Positions 2,899 through 59,855 of a DNA stretch of 64,000 bases are shown in pieces. The position numbers were made by a program, and so were the translations under genes. The number at the start of each line of letters is the position of its first letter. Within the stretch, counting starts at the first letter, position 1. Source of the stretch: Eledone cirrhosa (taxonomy: Eukaryota); the NCBI GenBank assembly GCA_964016885.1, contig OZ024742.1:118172001-118236000 (forward strand). The letters run 5' to 3'. The notes below the pieces were generated by a model. The model worked only from the letters and a program-made list of their open reading frames with translations. It was not told the origin of the DNA and searched no databases.

Positions 2899-4860
2899 TT
2901 ATAAGTTACATATAGTTCTGAATGTAGAATTTTGGCGATGTCTGCAACAACTAAATATTTCTGTTCTAAGGTTAATAGAGTTCTTACAATTAATTATATA
3001 GAAAATTTCTTCAATACATAATTTACAGAATCTTGATAAGGCCGTGTTTCGGTAAGCAGGTGCTTGAAATCGTTTTCCAAGATAATGAATAGTCTATATT
3101 CCTGCTTTTTAAGTTCCATATAAGAGATGAGAGGGTAGTAGAATATTTTTTGTCAGATCTTCTAAAAGAACAATTGTGGTTATTCCAGCGAAGTTTAAAT
3201 TCTGTAGAAGTGGCACCGATATAGTTGAATATATTATCACTAGTTTTAACTGTACATTTATAAACTATGTTTTTATCTAAACACTTATTTTGTAAAGGGC
3301 AGTTTGATTTGATTCTACAGTTACATTTTACGGAGTTGTTGTTGCTCAGAACGGTACTATTATACTGGATATTGCTAGAAATATTATTATTACTATTATG
3401 GTTATTTTGGTTTAAATTTAAGTTTCTATTATTAATTCTATTTATATTTTGTGCTATGTTCATAGTAGTAGAGTAGGATAGTTTTATAGTGTGTCTGTTA
3501 AAGATTGAGTGGTATCTGTTGGTTTTAGGAAAACATTTGTCTAGTGCTTTAAAGAATAGCTTTGCTAAAGGTGTTTTCACGCTTAATGAGAATGGGAGTG
3601 AGTACCAAATACTATTTCTAGTTCTATTTCTTTTGTTTGTTTTAGAGTTTAAGTTAAATTGTTTATTCTTATTAATAGTAGGGTGATTTGCCTTATTATT
3701 GTTGTCAATGTATTTAATTTTATTCGTATACCCTGCTCTATTTAAAGCTTCATTATAATATTCAGCCTTATTCTCAAAAATATTTTTATTAACAGAGATG
3801 CGTGAAATTCGTTACTGGACGCTATTGACGATAGTGTTCTTAATAGATCTAGGATGCTTAGAGTTAAAACTTACGTAATTTAGATTCTCATTGATTTTAT
3901 GGAATGGATAGTAAAGCCCTGAGCTAAGGTTTAATGTTACGTCTAAAAAGTTAACGATTTTATAGTTATTCTTTATTTCTAACTTAAGGTTATAATTATT
4001 GAAGAATTGTATTATGGATTTTCTTTTCCTATTAATTTCACAATTACTATGGTTTTCAATTAAAAGTAGCATATCATCATGATATAAACCACCGGTCATC
4101 TCTGGCATTTTTCTATGCAGTGTATTATTAATAAATAAGTCCACAAGATCCGTTATTTGCGCCGAGTCGGATGATCCCATGGTGATATCAAAGTTATTTT
4201 TCCTATCGGCTCTAGTCCAGGGATGATTGTTGAATTCAATTAAAGTTTTCCGTGCAATTAAAATGATATGCATTTCTTCACTAGATAAATCTGTATGTTT
4301 AGATGCATAGATAAGAGCCCTATTAAGTAACCTAGGAGTAATAGAGGAGTAGTAATTTGCAATATCCATTTGAATGAATTTTTTGTTATGTTTAAATTGT
4401 ATGTTATTGAACCAATCTATAACCTCATTAGTACCATTCCATAGTTTTAGGTGTGATTTTTCTTTAAGTTGTGGTATGATTCTATCTAATATATGTTTAC
4501 TAATTATGCCTAAGTCTGATTTAGATGGTGCTATAAGTCTGACTGGTAGTTCTATTTCAAAGTTTTTTTTGTGGCCTTTCAGGTTAATTTTCGGTATTCT
4601 AGGTATAAAGGGTTCAGTCCTATTTTGGATGACTAATTTATGAATTATTTCGGAAGCTTCTCCATTTAACGTTGCAAGATCTTCATTAGTTGTTATTCTG
4701 TAATTTTTCTGAGTTCCTTCAATATAAGATTATCCTTTGCATTCCGTATAGATTGTTAGTTTTATCAGATTTAATTAGGATCTTCTCAGTTTTTTCAAGA
4801 TTGTCTATATTATTCTTAAGGCCTTTAAGGTATTCCTGTCGAGTGCTCTGAATCAATTGT
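2899..4860 (-). pseudogene. Disrupted PLE reverse transcriptase + GIY-YIG endonuclease
   Basis: KSDKTNNLY, MDIANYYSSI, FDITMGS, GGLYHDD, VNFLDVTLNL; CNCRIKSNCPLQNKC linker; NIVYKC..YIG; after a frameshift CKLCIEE..INLRTEIFSCCRHR; several stops and frameshifts. Confidence 0.85.
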
Positions 4861-4903: not shown

Positions 4904-5001
<98 letters not shown>

Positions 5002-5005
5002 AAGG

Positions 5006-5056
5006 AGCTTCTACAGGACTAGTACTGTTTCATTCAGATGAAATCTTCAGGAAGCT
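5006..5056 (-). ncRNA. Type I hammerhead ribozyme
   Basis: AGCUUC-CUGAAGA-UUUCAUCUGAAU-GAAA-CAG-loop-CU-GUA-GAAGCU; 6-bp stem I; truncated relative at ~21935-21980. Confidence 0.75.
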
Positions 5057-5318
5057 GGGTGTCATATTAAGTTCTGGTATTTATACATTTAGGTAGTGGT
5101 AAGGGAGGGGTGGTGGCTGGGGGGGGGGGGGAGGATGGTATTTAGATACACAGGACCACAACATGGCAGAGGCCGTTTTTTCTTTGGGGAGTGGTCAATT
5201 AGCCAGAGTGCTTTTTTGAAATAAATAAATAAGTAAATAAATAAATAAATGAATAAATAGATAAATGAATAAATAAATAAATAAAATAAATAAAAAAATA
5301 AATAAATAAAAACCCCAA

Positions 5319-6381: not shown

Positions 6382-6447
6382 TATTTCATTATATATATTT
6401 CAGGGATATCATATTAAAAATATGGTATGCCTTCATCAGACAAAATA
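6382..6447 (-). ncRNA. Hammerhead ribozyme (mirror copy)
   Basis: Reverse complement of 6529-6594. Confidence 0.7.
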
Positions 6448-16705: not shown

Positions 16706-16930
16706 AAAATTAGGATTGGTGCTCTGAAATAGCGATGTATACATGAATATATGTATAGTATATTTGGCAATATACTGTATGCTTAATTAAAAACATTTAA
16801 AGACCTTGCGCTATTATTTTAAAGTAGTGACTATGTCACTTACTTCTTTTTTCAACAAGCGAAGGGAGATAAGCTGACAGATCTGTTTCACACTGTTGGT
16901 GATCATCAGAGCTTAGCATTCGCCGATCTC
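16706..16930 (-). mobile_element. Hammerhead element related to the 19.3-20.3 kb and 26.3-26.8 kb families
   Basis: Shares GCTCTGAAATAGCGAT and ACATTT..AAGACC blocks with both. Confidence 0.7.
16870..16915 (-). ncRNA. Canonical minimal type I hammerhead ribozyme
   Basis: UAAGCU-CUGAUGA-UCACCAACAGUGU-GAAAC-AGAUCU-GUC-AGCUUA; 6-bp stem I; palindromic stem III. Confidence 0.8.
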
Positions 16931-17342
16931 ACCTGGCCACTGACATAATTCCGCTGGGACTAATTTGACACTTAATTACAGCCCAGGTTTTATCAGTCCG
17001 GTGTTTTTATTTTATTTTTATCAACCATCGAATGAATATAAATAATGACTTTTGAAAGAACAAGAGCAGCATGACTTCATATAAAAGCTTTACAATTCAA
17101 ATTTAGACTCATAAATACTACTGTTGATGTTGCTGTTAACTAACAACAATTACACTAACAATACCAACAAGAAAACCCATGTCAAAAAGCTTTTAAGCCC
17201 TGACCGTCTAATCATTTTTCACTCACTATATTTAAGACTATACTTTCCAAATCGTCCTTTCAATTTTAAGGCAGTAAGGTGGCGTTTAATGAAGATTTTT
17301 CTGCCATTTATAGCAGGTCGGGCATGAAGGTGTTATCAGTAA

Positions 17343-17512
17343 TATAATTGTTTCTACTTTTGATACACGGCCAGCAATTACCCCCAATGCATTACTGGAG
17401 CTTTATTTTATCGACCCCGTAAAAATGAAAGGCAAAGTTAACCTCGGGGAGATTTAAGTCCAGAACGTAAAGGGACATAACTCTATACCGCAAAGCATGG
17501 TATTTGACGCTC
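17343..17512 (-). mobile_element. tRNA-derived SINE
   Basis: Reverse complement of SINE consensus. Confidence 0.8.
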
Positions 17513-18689
17513 AAATAGCAAAACGATACATATGTTTAGGCAAGGTATCTTTTAAACACTCTATGTACCATGTCTCCAATGCAAATATTTCTAATAGTCA
17601 TATTTTATAGCAACCACAGCATTTCAGTTGTTAATATTTATTTGTATTGAAAAGGAAAAAAAAAATCCCATAACCTATTGGCTCGGTGTGAAGCCACGGA
17701 CGATTTCATCTTCATATTATATGTCAGCATCAAGTTAACTCAGCATATTTCCACGCTATTGACTACGTTTAAATTCAACTGTAATGTCAGGAGCTAACGA
17801 AAACTATTGGAAAGTAAAAAACGACGGTCGTACCCTTTAATAATAAATCGAACTAAAATAATACTAGTAGTTTCGTTATTTGATTACCATAAATATTGGA
17901 CAAGCATAGGTTTCAGTGAGATTGCTTGTATGTGGTCGCTCAAAATAACTAATAAATCTCATTTCAGTCCCACTCTACATTCTAATAAGACACATTGGAT
18001 AAATTATTCTTTGGCATGTTGTCTGGAATAAGACGTGGTGGTCAAGGCTATAATGTCTTTTTTATTATAAGTCAGCTCGATCAAGACTGACCTTGAGCTA
18101 AACAACAACAATATTACCAGTTTAAGTAAGTCTTTACGTAAATATTACGACATTATCACGGGATTTTCAATTGGAATAGCCCCACAATTAATATGTACGA
18201 TAGCTATAATTATAATGTATAAAATTCTATTATACGTTTGAAAGTCTATCCATTATGAGTAGAAATTAATTGGTTGTAATTAGTGCGGACGTTAGGAGAT
18301 GTATAAGCTGTGATTACTCTTCAGACATTAGACATAGCAATTTCTCATCATTTTACGGTCAACACACCTCTTGTTTTTCTTAACTTTATATAAAGTAAGA
18401 AGCCTTGCTTTAGAAAATATATTGTATTAGTAAATTTAAATCTTTGTTAGCAAGATGAATCAGACAAAAAAAAACTATTATAAGAGAAATGGAAATGTAA
18501 TTAAGTAGAAAGTGTATTATCTAATGCAGATGACAAACGGATGATTCCTTTTGTATTGACTTGTCTCAAAAATAAGATTTTGACTAGACTATGCTCCACT
18601 TAACTGATGTCATATTGTACCAATACGGAACTGAAATTGTATGAGTGTTATTGTTCATACAAACACACATACACACACGCACACAAATG

Positions 18690-18774
<85 letters not shown>

Positions 18775-19498
18775 CATACATACATCTCCTCCTTTCTACT
18801 CATTATATATATATATATACAGTGGCGGACTGGGTCTAAAAATATTGGTTGCCCACCTACATATAGAATGCTATCATTTAATTTTTATAATGAATAAATA
18901 ATATTTTCGAAAAATACATAAGTAGAAACAAAACAGTGCAATAAAATTTTTGCGGAAAAATATCTTACTTTCTCTCATAAAAAAATTATGTAATTTGCGA
19001 AATCCAGAGACTTTCAATAATGACCAGAAGTCGACCCTAAATATTACTAATAGCGCTAGGAAAGCCATGAACGACACCACAACTTTTTAACTTGGAATTT
19101 GAAAGTAGGTTTATAATTATCAATTTTCATTATGCTATCGGTGGCCTAGTTGGCGAAGTCATAGGCGGTGGCGATCCTGGTCTGAAATTCGATCCTGGTT
19201 GGGAGTAGGGTTACCGGTAAACCTTTTCAGTTTTTTTCTATTCGTTGTAAAATAAAAACTGAAAAAGGTTACATCTTGAGCAGGATTGAACCCAAAGTCA
19301 GGATCTCCACCGTCTTTAGTACCTAAGAGCGGTTGCCGGTCCGGCAGAAATTAGAAATTGGAATAAATGCTCTGAAATAGCGATATATATGTGAATATAG
19401 ACATAGAATATTCGAAAATATTCTGTATGTTTATAATAAACATTTTGAAGACCTAATCGCTATAGAATAGAATACGTCACGTAAAAAGCACTGGATAT

Positions 19499-19541
19499 GT
19501 AGTCTTGAAGATTTCTAATAAGAATGAAACGCGTAGATTAC
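19499..19541 (+). ncRNA. Hammerhead copy 1 (C3U substitution, likely impaired)
   Basis: GTAGTC-TTGAAGA-...-GAAAC-GC-GTA-GATTAC. Confidence 0.6.
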
Positions 19542-19808
19542 TTCCCTTGCTTTTATCGAGAATCTAATTGTAATACGTGACGTATTCTATTCTATAGCGA
19601 TTTGGTCTTCAAAATGTTTATTATAAACATACAGAATATTTTCGAATATTCTATGTCTATATTCACATATATATCGCTATTTCAGAGCATTTATTCCAAT
19701 TTCTAATTTCTGCCGGACCGGCAACCGCTCTTTCAAACCAGTTCCTGTACACAGCTAAGTATTCTATAAGTCTCTAGCTGTGTCATTCTCGATAAAAGCA
19801 CTGGATAT

Positions 19809-19851
19809 GTAGTCCTGAAGATTTCTAATAAGAATGAAACGCGTAGATTAC
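19809..19851 (+). ncRNA. Hammerhead copy 2 (canonical core)
   Basis: GTAGTC-CTGAAGA-TTTCTAATAAGAAT-GAAAC-GC-GTA-GATTAC; 16-bp extension 19785-19800/19858-19873. Confidence 0.8.
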
Positions 19852-20118
19852 TTCCCTTGCTTTTATCGAGAATCTAATTGTAATACGTGACGTATTCTAT
19901 TCTATAGCGATTAGGTCTTCAAAATGTTTATTATAAACATACAGAATATTTTCGAATATTCTATGTCTATATTCACATATATATCGCTATTTCAGAGCAT
20001 TTATTCCAATTTCTAATTTCTGCCGGACCGGCAACCGCTCTTTCAAACCAGTTCCTGTACACAGCTAAGTATTCTATAAGTCTCTAGCTGTGTCATTCTC
20101 GATAAAAGCACTGGATAT

Positions 20119-20161
20119 GTAGTCCTGAAGATTTCTAATAAGAATGAAACGCGTAGATTAC
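20119..20161 (+). ncRNA. Hammerhead copy 3 (canonical core)
   Basis: Identical to 19809-19851, 310 bp downstream. Confidence 0.8.
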
Positions 20162-20390
20162 TTCCCTTGCTTTTATCGAGAATCTAATTGTAATACGTGA
20201 CGTATTCTATTCTATAGCGATTAGGTCTTCAAAATGTTTATTATAAACATACAGAATATTTTCGAATATTCTATGTCTATATATATATATATATATATAT
20301 GTCACCGAATTCATACTGAACCCGGTCATTGAAATGATCATAGTATAATAAACCTTTTCAGGAATTACACCAGTCCAGCCTCCTGTTATT

Positions 20391-20431
<41 letters not shown>

Positions 20432-20574
20432 TTAATACGTACCTTACTTACTGTGGTTACCTCCGATTGAACCCGAGATAAACTTATATATTTTTTCATA
20501 TATTGTTTCCTCTCTCATTTTGTATCTTGGTCCACAGAATGGCGTGGCCATCTTTTTCTTCACACGTCATGAGG

Positions 20575-21250
20575 GTGGCGACAATGTGGAGAAGACTCGC
20601 TGGCTGGATCTTAAGGACTTTCCAGACAAGAGACCGAGAGATCATGTTGATACTATGGAAGACATTTGTCCTAAGCTGTCTGGACTACTGTTCACCCCTT
20701 AGTATCAAACTAACCACGGAGCTTGAGGCAATTCAACAAAGCTACACCAAGATGATTGCCACGATAAAGGAGATGAGCTACTGGCAGAGGTTAAAAGAAC
20801 TGAAACTCTACTCCTTGGGACGAAGACGAGAGAGATACGCTGTGATATACATATGGAAAGCCCTGGAGGGACTAGCTCCAAAATTTGGCATTGAGAGCTG
20901 GACCAACACCCGAACAGAACGTCACTGTGTGCTGCCAAAGGTCCCGTCTTTCACATTTAGAATAAGGAGCATATATTGCAATAACCTGGTGTTCAAAGGC
21001 CCTCAAATCTTCAACAAGCTGCCAAGAAATTTGAAAGGCCTGCATCGTGTGGACGTGGATGTTTTCAAGAAAGATCTTGACACCCTGCTATCCAGGATCC
21101 CCGATGAGCCCACAGCACGGTACAAAGGTAACCTAAGGGCAGCTGCAACGAACTCCCTCTTACACAAATGCCCAGCCAACACTGGCTTGAGAAAGAACGT
21201 GTAGCAAAAAGGGCGGCTCCCAAGCATGGCCTTAGCCGGATGAAAGAGTA
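20575..21250 (+). mobile_element. 5'-truncated CR1-group LINE (RT C-terminus and 3'UTR)
   Basis: ORF 20503-21204: LWKTFVLSCLDYCSP, LEAIQQSYTKMI, SYWQRLKELKLYSLGRRRER, FNKLP, FKKDLD. Confidence 0.8.
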
Positions 21251-21271
21251 AATGTGTATATATGTGTGTGG

Positions 21272-21328
<57 letters not shown>

Positions 21329-21537
21329 TGTGTGCGCGCGTGTGTGTGTGTGTGTGCTTGTGTGAGTGACTGAGTGTACATATATACAAAGAACCTCATT
21401 TCAGGTTCCGTCCGGCTGCGTGATACCCTAAACATATGTCTTCTCCCATTGTCTTAGGTTGACCAATGCCGTGTGAGTAAACTGCGTAGACGCACGTCAT
21501 GCATTCATGTTTGTATCTATGCAAATATATATATATC

Positions 21538-21745
21538 GGTGGATTGGCAGTATCGGTAGAGGGTCGGACGCCATGCTTTCGAGCATAGTTACGTCCCTTT
21601 ACGATTTGAGTTCAAATCCCGCCGAGGTTGACTTTGCCTTTCATCCTTACGGTGTAGATAAAATCAAGTACCAGTAATGCACTGGGTAATTACTGGCCTT
21701 GTGCCTAAAGTAGAAACAATTAATAATAATAATAATAATAATAAG
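21538..21745 (+). mobile_element. tRNA-derived SINE
   Basis: Full consensus with (TAA)n tail. Confidence 0.85.
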
Positions 21746-21896
21746 AAGAAGAAGAAGAAGAATGAGGGCGAAGTTTTAGATCTTCATTACATTTATTGAG
21801 GTGTGACGCGAATGATCAGCTCAAGGCTCGATTTCCATCGATCTGGCCCGACTCTGGTATCAGAAGCTCGTCGGACTTCTGTTATGGTATTGACAG

Positions 21897-21932
<36 letters not shown>

Positions 21933-22070
21933 TATCGATGATTTCTCTCGAATGAAACGGTTCTAGTCCTGTAGAAGCCATTTCTATATTTATACTCTGC
22001 TATGTATTGAGTACCTTACTTACTGTAGTTACCACCGATTGAACACGGGATAAACTTATATATATATATA

Positions 22071-22259
22071 GGAAAAGGTTCAGGACCCCGACAGCAGAGC
22101 TCAAGCCATTTCGATGGCTATTTCTGGTTCAGAAATAGCCGTCGAAACAGCTTGAGCCGTCGGGGTCCTGAACCTTTTCCTATTACCCACTCTACCACCC
22201 AAAGTATCGAGTACTGTGGTGCGTTATGGTCCACCTGATTCCTTACCACACTTCCTTCG

Positions 22260-22262
<3 letters not shown>
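22071..22262 (+). mobile_element. Short fold-back copy of the 301-bp hammerhead family
   Basis: Hairpin 22071-22180 centred in hammerhead stem II, then the family 3' end; (TA)n flanks. Confidence 0.8.
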
Positions 22263-22311
<49 letters not shown>

Positions 22312-22314
<3 letters not shown>

Positions 22315-22874
22315 CAAACCACGCAGTATCCTTCTTTCTTCTCATGTTTTTTATATATATTTACCTCGGCTGCGTTTGTCTGTTTCTCTCTTACTGCTTG
22401 CCCGCTCTCTCTGTTTCTCTCACCTTCTTTCGCCCCCTCTGTCAGTTACACTTCCTCTCGACTGACCTCTTCCTCGCACTTCCACTCACTCACTCTCTGT
22501 TTCTCCCCTTCTCACTTCCTCCCGTTTGGCTAACAGTGGGCCTCTTCTTGCTTACATCTCACTCACGTCGGACGTCTGTACCTTTTGCTCATGAAATCCA
22601 CCCAGCTTATGCTGACCAGGACTACCATGTTGTTTGTTTATTTTCTTTCTTTGGTTTGTTTTTATCCTTCTATGTCGTTCACTTGTCCCCCTCGCTTTAC
22701 GCGATTACTGGTCCCAATAACTTTTTTTAGATTATTGCTCGCACCAACCTGAGGTATCTGATTTTTAATGCGATGAAATACCAATGATGGTTGAAAAATC
22801 ACTGACGAAGGACTATTTTTATCATATGTAACCCATGCGCAAACCACGCAGAATTCTTCTTTCTTCTCATGTTT
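22312..22874 (+). mobile_element. ~526-bp unit with short terminal direct repeat (solo pseudo-LTR-like)
   Basis: GCAAACCACGCAG..CTTCTTTCTTCTCATGTTT at 22313 and 22839; (TA)n flanks; degenerate CTGA..GAAA at ~22749-22792. Confidence 0.55.
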
Positions 22875-22954
22875 ATATATATATATATATCATAAATGTA
22901 ATCTGAGTTTTTCGAATATTAATATCACTCGATTCGTTTGTTTGAAACTATGCA

Positions 22955-23029
<75 letters not shown>

Positions 23030-24959: not shown

Positions 24960-26425
24960 ATGCATACATACGCTATTTGTACTTTAAGCTGTCACAGCTA
25001 CGTCGTATATTTTTATTTTTATCTCAAATAGTTGATGTGATTTACTCTCTAAAATATGTTTATGATATAACTATTTGTTTGATAGGCTAAAATATGTTTA
25101 TGATATAACTATTTGTTTGATATAGTATAAGGTAAAATAAGAACGTGTTACATTACTGTGTTTTTCTCTGGGCTTTAGCTGTGTACGTGAATTTTATTGG
25201 TGGCCACTGGGAACTGGCACACTAATGTTTAGTGTTTAAATAGAAGCTTCGTAACTCTTGAAATAAAACAATAGCCCACCCACTTCTTTGACAAACAATG
25301 GAAATTTAAAGAGTGTAGGGGAGTTTTGATTTCTGAGAGTATCAGAGGTGCAGTCAAAGAATATAGCAATAACCAAGTATTGAAACTAGATTTACTATCA
25401 CTGCTCGTTGAGAGTTTGCCTTTAGCTTTATAAAACAAACTCTAAATTTGCGAAATATTATAAGACCATTTTTAATGCCGTTTATAAAATAGGTCTAATT
25501 AAATGCTAGTGCTCAAGTAGTTTTCTTTGCCCTCTCGTGTATATATGTATTCTTCAAACAGGATGGTAGTTAGTTTATTTTCTATTATGAAGTTAGAAAG
25601 TCTATATGTATCTAATCTTCAGCATTAAGCGTGGCAGAGAGAAATGAGAGAAGACCTTGCATGAGAAGTAGAGATAAGGGAAAGCTGTGCGAAGCAAAAA
25701 GTGAAGGACGTGTAAGGAAGGAGGGAGGAGTATGTGGTAATAGTATTGAAGAAGTAGATTAAAAGAAGTAGATTAAATGATAGGCAGAAAAATAGTTCAT
25801 ATTAATTTGTATAGAGTTTCCCCAATGACTAACTCAGCTTTTTATTTATTTACTAAATGGATTTTCTCAAAATTTCTCTCTCTCGCTCTCTCTCTCTCGA
25901 TATATATATATATATGTGTGTGTGTGTATATGTGTGTGTGTGTGGGGGGGGGTTAGACTTAATTAACAAAGAGAGGAAAGGGCAACGAACGAAAACAAAA
26001 CAAAACGAAAATGAATTTTTTGAGGGGAAACTCAAAAAATTATTTTAAAAAAATAAAAATACAAACAAAGGTCACAGAACTCCATGATCGGCCGTTGAGA
26101 TGAACTTTGGCAGTTTCGTCCCCTACCAACGGTACTACTGGTCCACCCGTGGTCACACCGTCTGACATAAGCCAAACGGTGTCCAGTGAAGTAAGAGACG
26201 AGAGATAAAACATTAATTTATAGCAATTAAAATAATAACACATACACACGCATGCTTATATATATATACATATATATACATATACATATATATATATATG
26301 AATGTATATATAGTGTATTTTGCAATAGACTATATGCTTAATTAAAAACATTTTGAAGACCATACGCTATTGTTTTAAAGTAGTGACATTGTCGCTTAGT
26401 TAAATTTTCGGCAGACAGGGGGAGA

Positions 26426-26472
26426 TAAGTTGACAGCTCTGTTTCGCACATTTTGGTACTTATCAAAACTCA
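26426..26472 (-). ncRNA. Hammerhead, U3-A8 core (mirror copy)
   Basis: UGAGUU-UUGAUAA-GUACCAAAAUGUGC-GAAAC-AGAGCU-GUC-AACUUA. Confidence 0.65.
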
Positions 26473-26590
26473 CTACTCTCCCTGTGTGCCGAAAATTATG
26501 TGCGTTGGATTCTTATAGAATTCCAGTAACAATCAGGAACTGATTTTACAGAATCCAACACACATACTTTTCGGCAGACAGGGAGAGTAG

Positions 26591-26637
26591 TGAGTTTTGA
26601 TAAGTACCAAAAAGTACGAAACAGAGCTGTCAACTTA
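26591..26637 (+). ncRNA. Hammerhead, U3-A8 core
   Basis: TGAGTT-TTGATAA-GTAC-CAAAAA-GTAC-GAAAC-AGAGCT-GTC-AACTTA; extension TTCGGCAGACAGGG/CCCTGTCTGCCGAA. Confidence 0.7.
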
Positions 26638-27078
26638 CCTTCCCCTGTCTGCCGAATATTTAAGGAAGCAACAATGTCGCTACTTTAAAACAATAGCGTA
26701 TGGTCTTAAAAATGCTTTTAATTAAGCATACAGTGTATTGCAAAATACACTATATATACATTCATATATATATATCGCTATTTCAGAGCACCAATTCTAA
26801 TTATATATATATATTGTTATACTTGGGGAGAGTCATATTGTTGTAATAATATTGCCAGAATTAATAACAGAACACTCACTGTTTGGTTAGTTTTCGCTTC
26901 TGTATCTTTTATATCAGTAAATTTATTCGGTCCTTAATGTTTACCATTGACTGACCAACGGTCAAAAATACAGATATAATATAGTCACAAACACATATAT
27001 ATAGTCTAACAAAGTTCTTTCGTTGCACATCTGCAACATCGTCAGTTGTGCTATTATGTATATATATATATATATATA

Positions 27079-40066: not shown

Positions 40067-41704
<1,638 letters not shown>

Positions 41705-41832: not shown

Positions 41833-44530
41833 TTAGGGAGAAGTGTTTAGACGGGGTCCGTATTTGTTAATGAAGTAAGATTCCTTGCTGATGCGCTGGG
41901 TGTGGGTGGCATTATCTTTAAATTTGTAGAGGGGAAAGATTCTGAAGTTGGGATGATTTTGGGCGGCACAGGTATCAATGTGTTCACTCAGTGGTATTTT
42001 TCTGTATTCCCGTATTTTAATTTGGGATCTATGCACAGTCATGCGTTGGCGGAGGTTGTTTTTGGTCGGGCCTATGTATTGTTCTCGACAACCTGAGGAA
42101 GTTAATACATATATTAGATTTTCCGATGCACATGTGAAATTGTGTTTTACTATAAAACGTTGTCCTTCTTTGAAATAGAATTCCGAACCCTCTATTAGGT
42201 TGATGCAAATGCCACAGTTGGGTCTATCGCATTTTTTTACTGTGGGTTTCGTTGTTGTGGTTGGCAGTACTTTGGCATGTGTTAGGATGTTTTTCATTGA
42301 CTTGGATTGTCTTTTGCTCTTTATGATATCGTGTGTTCGTAGGATTTGGTTCATTCCGTGGTCCTTTTTCAACACAGGGATGTTCTGGAGGATGGTGTCA
42401 AAGGCCTCATTGTTGAGGGGGTTGTGTGTGGAGATGTATGGAAGAGCTTTTAGTTTCGGTTGATTTACTTTAGGGTGTCTAAGGTACTGAGTTTTAGGAC
42501 ACGTTGGATTCCATTGTCAATTAGTGATGCAGGGTAGTCCCTGCCTATGAGTGTGTCCTTTAGTTCTTGTAGCCGTAAGTAACAGGTGTTTTTATTGGAG
42601 ACAGATTCTCTTGGCTAAGTTGTAGGGAATATTAATTTTAACGTGTCTAGCGTGGCAAGAGTTGAAAGGGAGATATTGCTTGGAGTCTGTGGGCTTGTAG
42701 TATATGTCTGTTTCTATTTTTTTGTTATGGATCTTAATGAGGATGTCGAGGAAGGGGAGTTGTTGATGGCTGTATTACATCGTGAAGTTAATATTCGTGT
42801 TGAGCCCATTTATAAGGGTGTGAAATTCTTTAAGTTTTTCGATGTTTTCGTGCCAAAGGATGAAGCAGTCATCTAGATATCGCTTCCAGTTCCTTTCAAT
42901 GTGTAAGTGGAGGGTGTTTCCAAATTTGTTTAGGACTTTAGTGTAGAGGGTGATTTCCAGGTATCCCATGACTAGGTTGGCATAAGTGGGGGCTGTTTTC
43001 GTTCCTATAGCGGTCCCAGATTTCTGCCTGTAGGGTTTTTTATTGAAAACGAAGTAATTGTTCTCCAAGATAAATTTGAGTCCCTCTATCACGAATTCTT
43101 TTTTGATGCGTTGTGGGAGTTCATTGTAGAAATTATTCAGCCAGAATTGGATAGCTTCTATTCCTAGGTTGTGGGGGAGGTTGGAGTATAGGTTGACTAC
43201 ATCGAACGTCACTAGTAGGGTTTGTTCAGAAAGTGGCATATTAGGGAGGCGATTGAGCATATCTAGGTCGTCCCTTATATAGCTTTTGATGTGTTTGAGA
43301 AAGGGTTTGAGAAGGGTATCAATGAAGTTGCTAAGGCGGTGGGTTTCGCAAGCGGGGCCTGCTATTATAGGTCTTAATTTGAGATCATTGGGTGAGGGGA
43401 CATTGATGACTATGTCTGTGGCTTCCTTGCATGCCTTACTTATTAATTCGTTTTTATGTACTTTAGGGATACCGTAGAAAAGGCTGGATTTACTTATGAA
43501 GTCTGTGATGAAGTTGAATTCCTTGTTAGTGAGTCCTTCTTTGTATTGGTTGATTAGAGTTTTTAGGTTTCTCATAATTTTCTGTTGATTGTAGTGTTCA
43601 GCCTTTTCGTAGTATGTTTCGTTTTCCAAAGTGGAGAGCGCTAAGTTGATATAGAATTCTGTCTCCATTAGGACTACTGTACTCCCTTTATCAGCCTCTT
43701 TAATTGTAATGGTTCTGTCGGTTTTTAATCTATTTAATTCTTCCCATTCTTTCTTGTTGAGGTTTGGCTTGTGTTTTTGTCTGTGCAAGTGTTGGTAAGG
43801 GAAGTTTGTGATGTGTTCACAGAATTCGTCCAGGATTTTATTTCTACCTTTTGAAGAGGTGTAATTGCTTCTATTTCTGGCTAATGATTCATCCTCATTG
43901 TACTGGTCGAATAGTTGTTCACTAAGTCGTAACTTTCTACAGAAGTCTGTGATGTCTTCCTTCATTTCATAGTAGTTAGGACGTAGTGGGGTCGGTGTGA
44001 ATTTAAGTTGATAAGGTTGGGTGTTGGTTCTGCACTAGTAAGATTGATAATTTTTATTACTATCGGTTTCTCCTCCCTGTCTTGTGTTATTTTGTTTGCC
44101 TGTATCTGTGTGCTGTGTCTAAAAAATGGTTGGGGTAGAGGGGTTGTCTGCTGATGTTAAGTGGTCTCCTGTGTTTGTTATATTCCTTGTTGTTGTAAAA
44201 TGTGGTTCGGGTTGGTGGTTGTAGATTGAATGGGGTGTTCCTGTACTGCGAGTATGGGTGTGTGTTTCTATGTGCCATGTTGTATTGTGGTGTTATAAGT
44301 GGCCTACGTTGTTGGTTGTATCATGTGGTGTGGGTTTGTTGTGTATTGTGGAAGCGAGAGTTGAGTAAATGGTAATTACCTTGCTGTCCCCTTGAAGCGG
44401 GGAAATTGTTACATCTATCATGGTGGTGGTATCTTTTCCCTATGTTTGACGATGAGGCATCCGCGTAGTAGTTGAGTGATTTGGTATGGTGTCTCCTTGA
44501 AGGGGGAAAGTTGTAAATGTCATTCTGGGG
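41833..44530 (-). pseudogene. Penelope-like (Neptune/Nematis-type) RT + GIY-YIG ORF, disrupted
   Basis: KEADKGSTVV, FYGIPKVHK, LRPIIAG, FDVVNLYSNLPH, QKSGTAIGT, RYLDDCF; CDRPNCGIC linker; NLIYVL..QYIG..HRS..SEH..ESYFI..LN; TAA stop at 42775 and frameshifts. Confidence 0.9.
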
Positions 44531-44534
44531 GAGA

Positions 44535-44655
<121 letters not shown>

Positions 44656-44795
44656 ATATCATTTCACACCTTTTATTGTTAAGATTTTTTATGTTCTATT
44701 AAGAGAACCGATTTTACTGAAGAAATCGAATAATGTACACCATTTTACCAGGGGAAAAAAATACTGGTCCACCCCCACACACACACACACACATT

Positions 44796-44880
<85 letters not shown>

Positions 44881-45077
44881 CAAACACATACACACACACA
44901 CATATATATACACACATACACACGCGTACATTAACATACAAAGAGACTTATACACACACAGACACACTTCTACGTATAAGACAAAAGCTGAAAAATATCT
45001 TTTGACCTGCTAAAATACCCCCCACTGCTTACAGACACATTCCTACTGACCATCCCTGCTACCACGAATTACTCTGC

Positions 45078-45178
<101 letters not shown>

Positions 45179-45294
45179 ATCTTAATAGCCATTTGACACA
45201 TATCCCTGCTAACCATTATCACAACATCGAACACCTTACGACTACTACTACACACACACACACATATTTGTTGTGAAAGAGTCATTTCTCAGTC

Positions 45295-45463
45295 TTGGCG
45301 CAAAATCAATTTTTTATTCACATGACCTCTACCGACCAATCAAAATTGTTTTGACCACAAGAATTTTTGCAAACACCAAGTAGCGCTGGAGCCACTTTTT
45401 AACATAAAAACAGTCTTGGCGCAAAATCAATTTTTTACATTCACATGACCTCTACCGACCAAT
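45295..45463 (+). promoter_or_regulatory. Duplicated E2F-like / E-box / CCAAT module in pseudo-LTR
   Basis: TTGGCGCAAAA (45295, 45416), TCACATGAC (45318, 45441), CCAAT (45336, 45459); similar module at 16362-16485. Confidence 0.4.
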
Positions 45464-45595
45464 CAAAATTGTTTTGACCACAAGAATTTTTGCAACACCA
45501 AACTAGCGCTGGAGCCACTTTTTTAACATAAAAAGAGGTAGAATTCCCAAAACTAATCAGATCAGAGCAAACAACACGGACACTCTATCTCAAAA

Positions 45596-45637
45596 TTATT
45601 TTTGAAAAGCATTTAGAAATGCGCAACCGGTAAAAAC
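45596..45637 (+). ncRNA. Atypical hammerhead-like motif (UUGAAAA / GCAA)
   Basis: TTT-TTGAAAA-GCATTT-AG-AAATGC-GCAAC-CG-GTA-AAA; same motif at ~23511-23550 and mirrored at ~40729-40770. Confidence 0.4.
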
Positions 45638-45792
45638 TTAAAAACTTAAAACCACAACTGAATACTAACCCATACAATTACTAATACTCTTTTATTCCTA
45701 ATTAAACCATTTTTCAACTGTGAACAATTTGTCAGCATTTTCTATTCCGTTTACCAATATATAATAACTTGTGTGTTACACCTCTATTCTTT

Positions 45793-45847
<55 letters not shown>

Positions 45848-46001
45848 AAGTGAAGTAACGGAATCAGAAACTCGCGTTTGTCACTGTAATTCACGAGCTC
45901 AAAGGAAAAAGAGTCCCGGGCTCTTCAAATATAATATAGAGAAGAAAACACACTAGAGAGAGTGTGTTGTTTATCAAACACACACTCTCTCTAGTGTGTT
46001 T

Positions 46002-46108
<107 letters not shown>

Positions 46109-47235
46109 GATTGTGTGTGTGTGTGTAAATACTAGTGTTGTTTATATTGTGCTCATATATCTCCTGTTATATTACAGTTCGAAAAATGGGGATATTTAAA
46201 ATAAGTACCAACCTAGGATCGATATAATACACGACCGGAGTCCAAGAACCCAGACTAGTAAGATGATTTAAAGAAGGTTGGGAAATTTATTTATTTTTAT
46301 GTTGTATATTTGATATTCATTTCGTCAGAATCTCGAAGATCGTGTTACTCGTTTAGATAAATAGTTTTTTTAGGAACTTCCCCTGTGTGATTCACATTTG
46401 TTGCTATGATATTCAACTTAGTGTTATAAGGATGCTATGTATGATGTTAAGCTATGCGACGCATTTAATCAATACTCATCCTGGACTAGAACAATGTGGT
46501 GTGTGTTTTATGTCACTGGCAGAAAAGTACATAAAAATCAGATATGTCATTTTACCGAGAGGCGTTAAGAGGAATATTAATTTTTACTACTTTCATGTCA
46601 CGCCAACCTATCGCACGTTTTCACCTGTATTTGTATTTGTAAACCAATTCCTGACAACATAGATCGCAGTTAGTTTCTATCAACTAGTTATTCTTAATAG
46701 CTGTATTTATATCTAACGGTGTGTGTAGTCGTAAATATGAAACAAAACTGGCAACTGTGTAAATAATTATAAAAGACATTAAAGAATAGAGTCAAGTTAC
46801 ATGAATTTTAATTGTTGTGCTGGTTTACATAGTAATGAAGCTTCATCCTATTTAATTTAAAATTAGGATTTTATCTTCTGACATAAGTGGGTGTTTAACC
46901 GAGAGAACACCGTGTAACGTTTAACGTGAGAGGATGCTACGTGACTGTTTTGAAAAATATTCAATAACTCAAATTAAATAACAAAGAATTAAATGGAAAC
47001 AAACTAAAATATTGAAGATATCTGTCTAAATAATACAATGATTTTTGTGTAAAATGTATTAATCTTTACATCATATAGTTAATGTAATGCAAATTTTCGT
47101 GGGATTCGATACCATGTTTAAACAAACTACTAAACCATAAGTCATGACACCATTGAAATACTTCAGTCTCCACTCAAAACAAATAACAAACAATTCAAAT
47201 AAGAACCATATCATTCAACTTAAAAAATAAATAAT

Positions 47236-56885: not shown

Positions 56886-57899
56886 CTACCGATGCGCTGA
56901 ACGAGTGTGGCTTTTTAGTCCAGCCAGCGACTTGAAAACTCTAGTACAAACACTACACTTGTGACAATTACTGACACCTAGTGCTGGGCTCATGGCACCA
57001 TGTGACCCGAGGTGTCGTGTGAGATCACTACTCGACCTGCATACCCTTCCACAAACATCACATTTCGTCGTCTGATGAACACTTACAACTCCACAGGTGC
57101 CTGCTTCCCTGTTCTTGTGCACTCTCAGGTGACTCTTTAGACCTGCTATGCTCAGACAAACCCTATTACAGGTCTCACATGTCAGGTCAGGCCGTCTGTC
57201 AGTGCCTTCGGGAAGGCCAACATGGATTCCTTTCCAGACATCTCTTTTTAGTGTCGCGTGCTTTCTTCTTGTTTCCTCAAATAAACTCTTGCCACTTAGC
57301 CACTGCTTACCTCCACTGCAATCGATCGCTAGCACATGCTTCCCAGTGCTCACAATGGATTTTACTTTTCTTGAGCGCCCCTTGATGCAGTCCTTAAAAC
57401 GCATCTTGGGTTTGCTCGCGTTCCTTTTTCCCATTTGGAGCTCGCCATAAAGCAGCTGCTTCGGCATTCGCTTGTCATTCATCCTTACAAGATGGCCTGT
57501 CCAGCGCAGCTGATGTTTCAAAATCAAGGACTCGACACTATCACAGCCACTTCTGTCCAGAACCTCGACGTCACTGACAAACATTTGCCAAGTCATGCCG
57601 AGGATCCGACGTAAGCAGTACTGGTGGAACCCCTCAAGTCGCTTCATCTATCTACGGTAGACCACCCACGTCTCACAAGCATAAAGAAGTGCCGCGAGCA
57701 CACACGCATGATGCACTTTGAGCTTTGTCTTTACCGAAATTCTGTGTTGAGACCAGAGACGCTTGTTCAGTTTTCCAAAAGCATCATTGGCTTTCTGTAT
57801 CCTGTTTGATATTTCCTCATCAAGATCGCAGGACATACTCAGAGTGCTTCCAAGATATACAAAACTGCCAACGACCCTTAGTCGTTCACCATAAACCAA
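56886..57899 (-). pseudogene. RTE ORF C-terminal part with three C2H2 zinc fingers
   Basis: FVYLGS, LLYACETW, QLRWTGHLVRM..RMPKQLLYGEL; CxxC..HxxxH three times; in-frame TAG at 57648. Confidence 0.85.
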
Positions 57900-58977
57900 G
57901 ATGCATCAGGATTGGTTTGACCAAAATGACAAGCTTATAGACAAGCTTTTGGAGGAGAAACATATGCTCCACTCCGCATTGCTTGGTAGTGATTTAAGCA
58001 CCGATCGGCAGAAGACAATCGCTGATAAGCTGATGTGCAACGAAAATTGCGTGAAATGAAGAATAAGTGGTGGAATGACAAAGCCGATGAAATACAACTT
58101 GCGTCGGATGTGAAGGACGTTAAGGCAATGTATAATCTTCTTCGTGAAGTGTATGGACCACCTATATCACCAGTTGCGCCTCTTAGGACAAAGGATGGCA
58201 ATCAGCTCCTTAGAGATCCCAATGATATCCTGTTGAGATGGCGGGAACACTTTGACGAGCTTCTCAATAGGGATTCAGAGGTTGACGAAGAGTTTATCAG
58301 GTCTATACCTGATAAGCCAGTAAAGGAAATCCTTGCTGAGCCTCCAACGATCGAGGAGGTTAAAAGTGCTGTCAGGAAACTCAATGGTGGGAAGTCGCCT
58401 GGATTGGATGGACTGTATGCTGAGATCTTGAAGCACGGTGGAGAGAATCTCTTGCACCGACTTCATTCTTTGGTTCTGGATGCCTGGAACAACAATCATG
58501 TTCCCGATGACTGGAAGGATGCTGTGATGGTTATTTTGTACAAGGGAAAGGGAGACAGGGATGACTGCGGAAACTATCGTGGGATATCACTGTTGTCTGT
58601 TGTCGGCAAAGTTTTTGTGTAGAATTCTGTTGGACCGTCTATTGCTCCACATTGCTGTTGAAGCTCTACCAGAGTCGCAATCGGGTTTTCGGGCTGGGCG
58701 TGGCACTGTGGACATGATCTTTACAGCCAGACAACTGCAGGAAAAGTGTGTTGAGCAGAATGTGGATCTCTACCAGGTGTTTGTTGATCTGACAAAGGCG
58801 TTTGACACGGTAAACAGAAAGGCTTTATGGGATATCTTGAGGAAGCTGGGGTGCCCTGAGAAGTTAGTTTCCATTTTGCGTTTGTTCCATGATGACATGA
58901 CGGCATGGGTAAATGTTGGTGGAAAGCTCTCTGCGCCGGCGACGGTCGAGAATGGAGTCAAACAGGGTGACATTCCA
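57900..58977 (+). pseudogene. Inverted RTE RT N-terminal part
   Basis: ORFs 58035-58622 and 58561-58992: RWREHFDELLN, KSPGLDG, LPESQSGFRAGRGTVDMIF; frameshifts. Confidence 0.85.
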
Positions 58978-59855
58978 ATAAGCTATAGATAATTTGCCGG
59001 TGATTCGAAGAAGAATTAAAAAATCGAATGGTAAAATGGCAGATAAAATTCAACCCAAAAGAAAATAAATGTTTGCAGCAAAATATCATTACCAAAATAC
59101 CTTCTATTTAGTCAATTAGGAAACAAAAAATGGCAGCCAAATCTCTCGTAGATCCCACTCTAACAACTTTAAAAGAATGATATATTTGGTAGACATTTGA
59201 GATAAACTATGTCTAAACAAACACAAGGATCACAGCTAGAATGTTGTATCTGTCTGGAAGATTATTTGCCTATTCGTATCTCATTACAAGTATTTTCTAC
59301 GTGGGCAAATGGATTAACATGATTTACAGTTGTTTGGAGTACTTTAGATCTTTAATTACATTACCTACAAAAGTTTATATTATTCTACAACTTTAACATA
59401 TCTGTTATCAATGGAGATAAAAGCCTTGATGTCTGACGACAAAAATATACAAGTGTCTGATTCTTCTCACCATTCATAAAATTCCTGGGAATAGTTATTG
59501 GTGTCTGAGAACATTAGTTCTAGAGTCTTTATAGACGAGTAGATCATGAAAGAATGTTTCTCCTTATTTAAAAATGACCAGTTGTGATTTCTAAGATGAT
59601 TTGCTAAAACGTTATAGTAAATGAATAAGACATTTAACATAAACATAAGTGTATTTTAAGAGTATTTGCAGGCCGGAAATATATACAGTATCAAATTGTT
59701 TTTATTTTCTCATACATTCTTTTCAAGCTGCGTGTAAAAACTGAGGAGGGCTATATGCGCCAAATGATTGCATTTAGAAATATTCCGTTAAAGAAAAATA
59801 TAAATGACTTGGTTCGATATTGCATTTTTCAATGCCTTTGCAGGAAGGAAAAATA

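Follow-up and report, generated by a model that had tools for sequence, protein, structure and literature searches.

A young non-LTR retrozyme family in Eledone cirrhosa, likely spread into TA microsatellites by Penelope-like machinery

A non-coding array of 310-bp units bearing type I hammerhead motifs, found in a 64,000-nucleotide stretch of Eledone cirrhosa DNA (hereafter the window), probably represents a young non-LTR retrozyme, spread by a Penelope-like element (PLE) reverse transcriptase-endonuclease that likely copied a circular 310-nt RNA into TA microsatellites. Judged by its sequence, the class is a known one and the family a new one with an unusually clear mechanistic record. Because the family is both young (about 0.04% one-unit substitutions) and abundant, each insertion still records its template and both of its priming sites.

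The copying of retrozymes from circles by PLE enzymes is still presented as a hypothesis where PMC7229834 and bioRxiv 10.64898/2026.07.22.740005 treat it, as is the origin of the inverted arms and tails of PLEs where PMC8557442 discusses it. The family described here yields testable rules, namely a single start site on each strand, a common template for the two arms and amplification from one unit; the circle-template and PLE-mechanism hypotheses become simple tests that call for a 310-nt RNA and a (TA)n target. At more than 1,100 loci the family has also recently given rise to long inverted repeats.

Results

The array in the window

Units are numbered here from the base after the predicted cleavage site. 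TRF reports a period of 310 bp at 19484-20294, with 2.6 copies and 99% matches, and two of 310 bases (19505 and 19603) distinguish unit 1 from unit 2, which bears out the near-identical tandem units described in the initial annotation of this DNA; the unit start given there as 19491 moves to 19484, where the array begins. The inverted 159-bp 5' piece, the (TA)n 3' flank and the lack of coding capacity reported at that stage all hold (Table 1), the longest stop-to-stop frame being 59 aa and the longest ATG frame 30 aa. GC content of the unit is 34%. The main arm stops at about unit 122-127, where a short TA stretch grades into the flank, while the outer end of the inverted arm lies at unit 197 in non-TA DNA, at neither of the two family-wide end sites defined below. 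In this left arm end and in its mutated first hammerhead the window copy is atypical for the family.

Two tRNA-like segments face inward in the left flank (19140-19324) and contain what we take, going by the consensus, to be A/B-box-like motifs; ARAGORN called no tRNA on the flanks of the insertion. Unit positions 39-50 (19884-19895 in the window) form a palindromic ACGTGACGT hairpin, presumably resembling a CRE-like site.

Table 1. Features of the 310-bp array and its relatives in the window
Feature	Position	Strand	Basis
Sister-family copy	16707-16930	-	About 77% identical over unit 59-235, different hammerhead
Inverted second arm, 159 nt, unit positions 39-197	19325..19483	-	100% complementary to 19884-20042
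Main arm, 2.6 tandem 310-bp units	19484..20282	+	TRF and unit comparison
Hammerhead copy 1, core change C3U at 19505, likely impaired	19499..19541	+	Sequence
16-bp helix (19785-19800 with 19858-19873) extending stem I and enclosing the hammerhead	19785..19873	+	z -5.4; compensatory changes in older sister family
Hammerhead copy 2, type I, intact; predicted cleavage after 19845	19809..19851	+	Sequence and folding
Predicted 310-nt monomer between two predicted cleavage sites	19846..20155	+	Folding z -4.6, better than all shuffles
Site A, unit 130-139, AUAUAUAU: 3' end used across the family, with complementarity to the (TA)n target	19975..19984	+	Junction matches and arm ends
Site B, unit 160-170: second family-wide 3' end	20005..20015	+	Junction matches and arm ends
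Hammerhead copy 3, intact; predicted cleavage after 20155	20119..20161	+	Sequence and folding
(TA)n target flank	about 20278..20300	.	Read from sequence
Sister-family copy, two-armed in (TA)n	26288-26810		About 77% identical over unit 59-235, different hammerhead

The hammerhead motif

The motif combines a 6-bp stem I (GUAGUC/GAUUAC), CUGAAGA, a U.U-closed 4-bp stem II, GAAA, the palindromic ACGCGU and a GUA site. A strict hammerhead descriptor matches the window 7 times, compared with 0.01 expected from 100 simulations of matched composition, so the motif is not due to chance; Rfam covariance models gave no hammerhead match at E<=1 in 17000-23000. The GUA site, the palindrome and the enclosing 16-bp helix had been noted at the outset and recur here (Table 1). 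An intact hammerhead had been claimed for each unit, which is true of copies 2 and 3, while copy 1 reads UUGAAGA. Likewise, the motif is of type I as first proposed, but 'minimal' is not the word for it under the definitions of PMC4209133: helix I of 6 bp, helix II of 4 bp and a short palindromic helix III make up the canonical metazoan type I form there, whereas the min-HHR of PLEs has a long helix II (7-8 bp) and a short helix I (4-5 bp), dimensions that the motif of the 310-bp unit does not share.

Folded freely, a two-unit RNA is predicted to adopt a double hammerhead (-109.9 versus -94.6 kcal/mol), and in the modelled circular monomer the probability of stem III is about 0. According to PMC4209133, a stem III that forms only in multimers means cleavage there and none in monomer circles, and the predicted folds of the 310-nt unit match this arrangement. 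None of 11 array-fixed variants in the hammerhead region falls in the core, against 6 of 12 one-unit variants (Fisher p=0.014); the fixed ones sit at N7, at 10.1, in loop II and at stem I positions where pairing is kept. In an older sister family, compensatory changes preserve both the long helix and stem II: of 63 predicted pairs, 14 are changed on both sides, with an overall covariation term of only -0.2. Core sparing, covariation and fold thus indicate constraint on the predicted ribozyme rather than its activity. By analogy, the finding that 8 of 9 predicted Xenopus retrozyme dimers stayed uncleaved in vitro (bioRxiv 10.64898/2026.07.22.740005) would count against active self-cleavage in the 310-bp family.

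A dispersed and very young family

Copies were located in the host genome, which comprises 3.0 Gb and is rich in microsatellites, by exact sequence patterns. A single 33-nt variant of the core is matched exactly at 1,586 places, in dispersed arrays, and the unit-(TA)n junctions of the two end types at 1,058 and 1,114; a 40-nt pattern with a guessed end had no match in the genome. The genome holds at least 1,100 near-identical insertions, and capture-recapture from the end position lists puts the number at roughly 1,900. One-unit substitutions amount to about 0.04%, and the family is very young.

We resolved 74 whole insertions out of more than 1,100, comprising the window copy, 11 located with the core pattern, 42 from 40 regions chosen for their paired ends and 20 chosen as apparently unpaired, all but the window copy coming from the first 245 Mb of one contig. 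A duplicated, gap-adjacent locus (L038) and a small internal inversion in L215 were left out of the counts. The initial annotation had raised the question of whether copies throughout the genome are permuted tandems; they are dispersed tandem arrays whose 3' ends are set at two sites, variation being limited to the inner 5' ends. It had also considered that most copies might be ordinary termini of ORF-bearing PLEs. No RT ORF is attached to the unit at any of 60 end-centred loci or in any of the 74 whole insertions, and all 60 end-centred loci show unit sequence only, up to the inner end of the insertion or the edge of the locus. An apparent ORF link at L055 proved to be an assembly gap, and those at L104, L118 and L256 were read as neighbouring or nested insertions. 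In four sequencing runs of unrecorded kind, where tandem DNA and circular RNA are not separable, the unit closes on itself, with a single 340-nt contig in three of them.

Two arms and two end sites

The usual insertion consists of two arrays set head to head, their RNA-sense 3' ends facing outward and each joined to (TA)n. At site A, where 8 nt form an AU match to the (TA)n target, the last non-TA base is unit 129 or 131, inside the element given in Table 1; at site B it is mostly 163. Of 105 arm ends, 103 abut (TA)n, and 98 of these do so at unit 129, 131 or 163; most of the loci behind this count were found through TA-junction patterns, and all 8 complete two-armed arrays found by core pattern agree with (TA)n ends. 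The A-to-B stretch, about 26-34 nt, is a Penelope-type tail, and the insertions display the inverted 5'-truncated arm and the tail at one end by which PLE-mobilised copies are recognised.

Each insertion as a rule uses both sites. An A arm faces a B arm in 64 of the 74 whole insertions, with no A/A and no B/B case; regions chosen because their ends paired supplied 41 of these 64, and among insertions not so chosen 23 of 32 are A/B. The remaining 10 are single-armed, gapped, not reached or atypical, the window copy included. On one contig (C1), 55 of 93 B ends among the ends listed have an outward-facing A partner, again with no A/A or B/B pair.

Arms range from 1 to 27 units, with means of 4.0 for A arms and 5.6 for B arms (54 insertions), and the lengths of the two arms within an insertion are uncorrelated (rho 0.15, p 0.30, n=49). 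The inner 5' ends, 142 in number, are scattered over the unit and form no pile-up at the predicted cleavage site; a cluster at 294-296 was an artefact of variants there. Most of the head-to-head junctions show 1-5 nt of microhomology.

Haplotypes and the template

As a rule, a variant is fixed throughout an array, in all units of its two arms. The two arms carry the same haplotype in 48 of 51 arrays (24 haplotypes; permutation mean 5.5, maximum 15). Fixed array-wide are 32 variants, and 19, in 15 arrays, are private to one array, in the sense of private among 74 of more than 1,100 insertions. By comparison, none of 95 one-unit variants is shared, and none of 51 testable one-unit variants is mirrored in the other arm, the mirrored single variant of L220 being counted apart. 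For a variant to be fixed across a two-armed array of 20 units, one unit must have been amplified; the copying of linear multimers cannot lengthen arms, which argues against a multimer template. A circular monomer fits the fixed variants, the arm lengths and the spread of 5' ends. End-to-end jumping on cleaved linear monomers was rejected, since it would pile 5' ends at position 1, where no such pile-up exists, and junction indels near the cleavage site, considered as ligation scars, turned out to be stable haplotypes at position 3.

Two mirror-image mosaics occur among 49 arm pairs: L043, in which two reference units are followed by variant units in mirrored order in both arms, and L220. Such mosaics are impossible from a one-unit circle and call for a heterogeneous multimer or later conversion. 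In L364 and L374 the arms differ. A minority of events, represented by these four loci, probably used multimers or two RNAs.

Resident PLEs and the search for a partner

The two-site (TA)n ends recur in autonomous PLE families of the same genome. Since such ends also appear in the literature on PLEs and autonomous elements are resident, PLE machinery is the likely mobiliser. A survey of 60 loci with RT hits, 30 with GIY-YIG and 44 longer stretches turned up no autonomous PLE sharing the unit sequence. Three autonomous families were studied. Over 28 nt only, the hammerhead core and stem II of the unit agree at 25 positions with the pLTR hammerhead of one of them, whose likeness to the unit is limited to the hammerhead. 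The other PLE families sampled, which with this one make up part of the PLE diversity of the genome, showed no match to the unit, and no pLTR homologous to it was found among the families sampled. A young family that its linker cysteines suggest is of the Neptune clade has two-site (TA)n ends like those of the 310-bp family; it contains no sequence alignable to the unit and, by descriptor, no hammerhead. By age and end pattern it is the best candidate partner.

An older sister family

A second, older retrozyme family with units of about 318 nt (1,367 matches to a 29-nt stretch) is collinear with the 310-bp unit over its length, as seen in 22 aligned units. Because of this collinearity, a swap of hammerhead modules between families was rejected. 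The sister family ends at the same two sites at the loci inspected, and none of 30 of its loci leads into an ORF. Its cores include both C3-G8 and U3-A8, the latter a covariant reported in PMC4209133.

Discussion

Comparison with known systems

In its sequence the 310-bp family has what defines a non-LTR retrozyme, with type I hammerheads in two or more successive units, no ORF and dispersed multiple copies. It shares with the animal non-LTR retrozymes of PMC7229834 and bioRxiv 10.64898/2026.07.22.740005 non-coding tandems, dispersed multimers and co-occurring PLEs; its units fit the range described for them (150-450 bp, GC below 50%, a type I hammerhead in each), and the U.U at the base of helix II together with a short helix III matches the description of axolotl HHR_Amex2 (PMC7229834). 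The retrozyme reading first offered for this array is further supported by the array-wide fixed variants, as one-unit copying predicts, and by the predicted double-hammerhead fold of a two-unit transcript. The two-armed head-to-head arrays, fixed start sites, (TA)n targeting and array-wide haplotypes are absent from the retrozyme descriptions compared. Circles have been demonstrated for the retrozymes of those two reports; for the 310-bp family a circle is predicted. A literature search, with most subscription journals and repeat databases outside its reach, found no description of the family or of strict one-site-per-arm use.

On the other side stand the PLEs. According to PMC8557442 (Craig et al. 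2021), PLEs target (TA)n and carry a truncated copy in inverted orientation, with a tail of 30-40 bp at one end. In PMC11167929 (Frangieh et al. 2024) a purified PLE protein nicks both strands and extends both from two internal sites that bound the tail; this anole element was inserted without hammerhead cleavage and with no strand difference in start site. EN+ PLEs and the 310-bp family thus have in common the inverted 5'-truncated copy, the one-end tail (about 26-34 nt here), the (TA)n or AT-rich target and the two start sites. Unlike them, the 310-bp family has no ORF, both of its arms are multi-unit and each arm strictly uses one site; the RT and GIY-YIG ORF between pLTRs that marks an autonomous PLE is lacking. 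The 8-nt target match at site A also differs from the anole element, which starts without homology (PMC11167929).

In L1 twin priming, two target-primed cDNAs produce an inversion joined by microhomology. The 310-bp insertions would share these features with L1; they differ in that both primers start at fixed sites about 26-34 nt apart and that the inner ends of the arrays are unrelated to site A or B.

A model for insertion, and its alternatives

On our preferred reading, a retrozyme spread by PLE protein, an array would be transcribed and neighbouring hammerheads would pair their palindromic stems III and cut at GUA, freeing a 310-nt monomer, as the predicted fold and the sequence constraint suggest. 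The monomer would be closed into a circle, presumably stable because stem III cannot form in it. A PLE protein may then have cut both (TA)n strands and used the same RNA as template for the two 3' ends, starting at site A for one and at site B, about 26-34 nt downstream, for the other, as the observed ends would imply. Each polymerase would have circled through 1 to 27 units, the arm lengths seen, before the two cDNAs were joined head to head by the few bases of microhomology present at the junctions. A more specific version, to which we give slightly less than an even chance, has a dimeric Penelope-type enzyme performing two simultaneous rolling-circle reverse transcriptions on one ribozyme-made circle, each subunit having its own (TA)n strand and start site. 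If it is true, retrozyme circles would be directly shown to be the template of transposition, and the inverted arm and one-sided tail of PLEs would be explained by one mechanism. The insertion of uncleaved RNA by the anole PLE and its equal start sites on the two strands would, by analogy, count against our preferred reading, as do the mosaic arrays, the arrays with differing arms, the atypical window copy and the lack of a PLE sharing the unit sequence among the loci surveyed.

The same PLE-driven insertion could instead have taken a long, uncleaved multimeric transcript as its usual template, the hammerhead and circle being a side product or used occasionally. The mosaics of L043 and L220 and the unprocessed RNA used in vitro by the anole PLE (PMC11167929) favour such a template, and 5' ends that do not stop at the cleavage site fit uncleaved RNA as well as they fit a circle; yet a multimer could only have shortened arms that reach 27 units, private array-fixed variants number 19 against 2 mirrored mosaics among 49 pairs, and the inherited variants spare the catalytic core, so that we judge this reading unlikely. 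An origin at the DNA level, in which short inserts or extrachromosomal DNA circles were expanded and homogenised by unequal crossover and gene conversion, seems to us very improbable. Both outer ends of the insertions fall at two set sites and place the RNA-sense 3' ends in the flanking (TA)n, a pattern shared with the resident autonomous PLEs, and inverted arms share private variants while 95 one-unit variants were left unhomogenised, even though a local-amplification model is discussed in bioRxiv 2026.07.22.740005 and the block mosaics of L043 and L364 could be conversion tracts. The units might, lastly, be pseudo-LTR remnants of an ORF-bearing PLE that escaped sampling. The PLE-like grammar of the ends, the resemblance of core and stem II to one pLTR hammerhead (25 of 28 nt) and the partial scoring of PLE diversity lend themselves to this idea; set against the absence of an ORF from all 60 end loci, 74 insertions and 30 sister-family loci, and against a self-closing unit that aligns collinearly over its length with an older tandem family, they leave it with hardly any probability.

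Neighbouring and related elements

Several other elements lie in the window. A broken PLE with RT and C-terminal endonuclease (3023-4729, minus strand) belongs to a family whose pLTR hammerhead, with a TATATA-type stem III, is also found at 6439/6537 and 23364; it was considered as the partner of the 310-bp family and rejected, its pLTR hammerhead being unrelated. At about 5000-5060 (minus strand) is the pLTR hammerhead of another autonomous PLE family (loci L331-L338; 12,272 matches to a 33-nt pattern), which has left many tiny two-armed inserts with 5' ends a short way upstream of the core; part of its tail is present at about 20437-20475. The Neptune-type element itself occupies 41833-44034 (minus strand), between inverted repeats at 40086-41647 and 44623-46371; it is very young, with many intact 784-aa frames and an overlapping upstream frame of 455 aa. 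LINE-type reverse transcriptase fragments occur at 20482-21204 (plus strand), where there was no Pfam match, and at 56886-58992.

Elsewhere in the genome, a 163-bp tandem of the sister family (L199-L201, C1:56078493-56078847) has no hammerhead and keeps the start-site region. Another tandem hammerhead family, with a period of about 475-510 bp, the same geometry and a CUAG palindrome (L300:7568-9528), is probably a further retrozyme.
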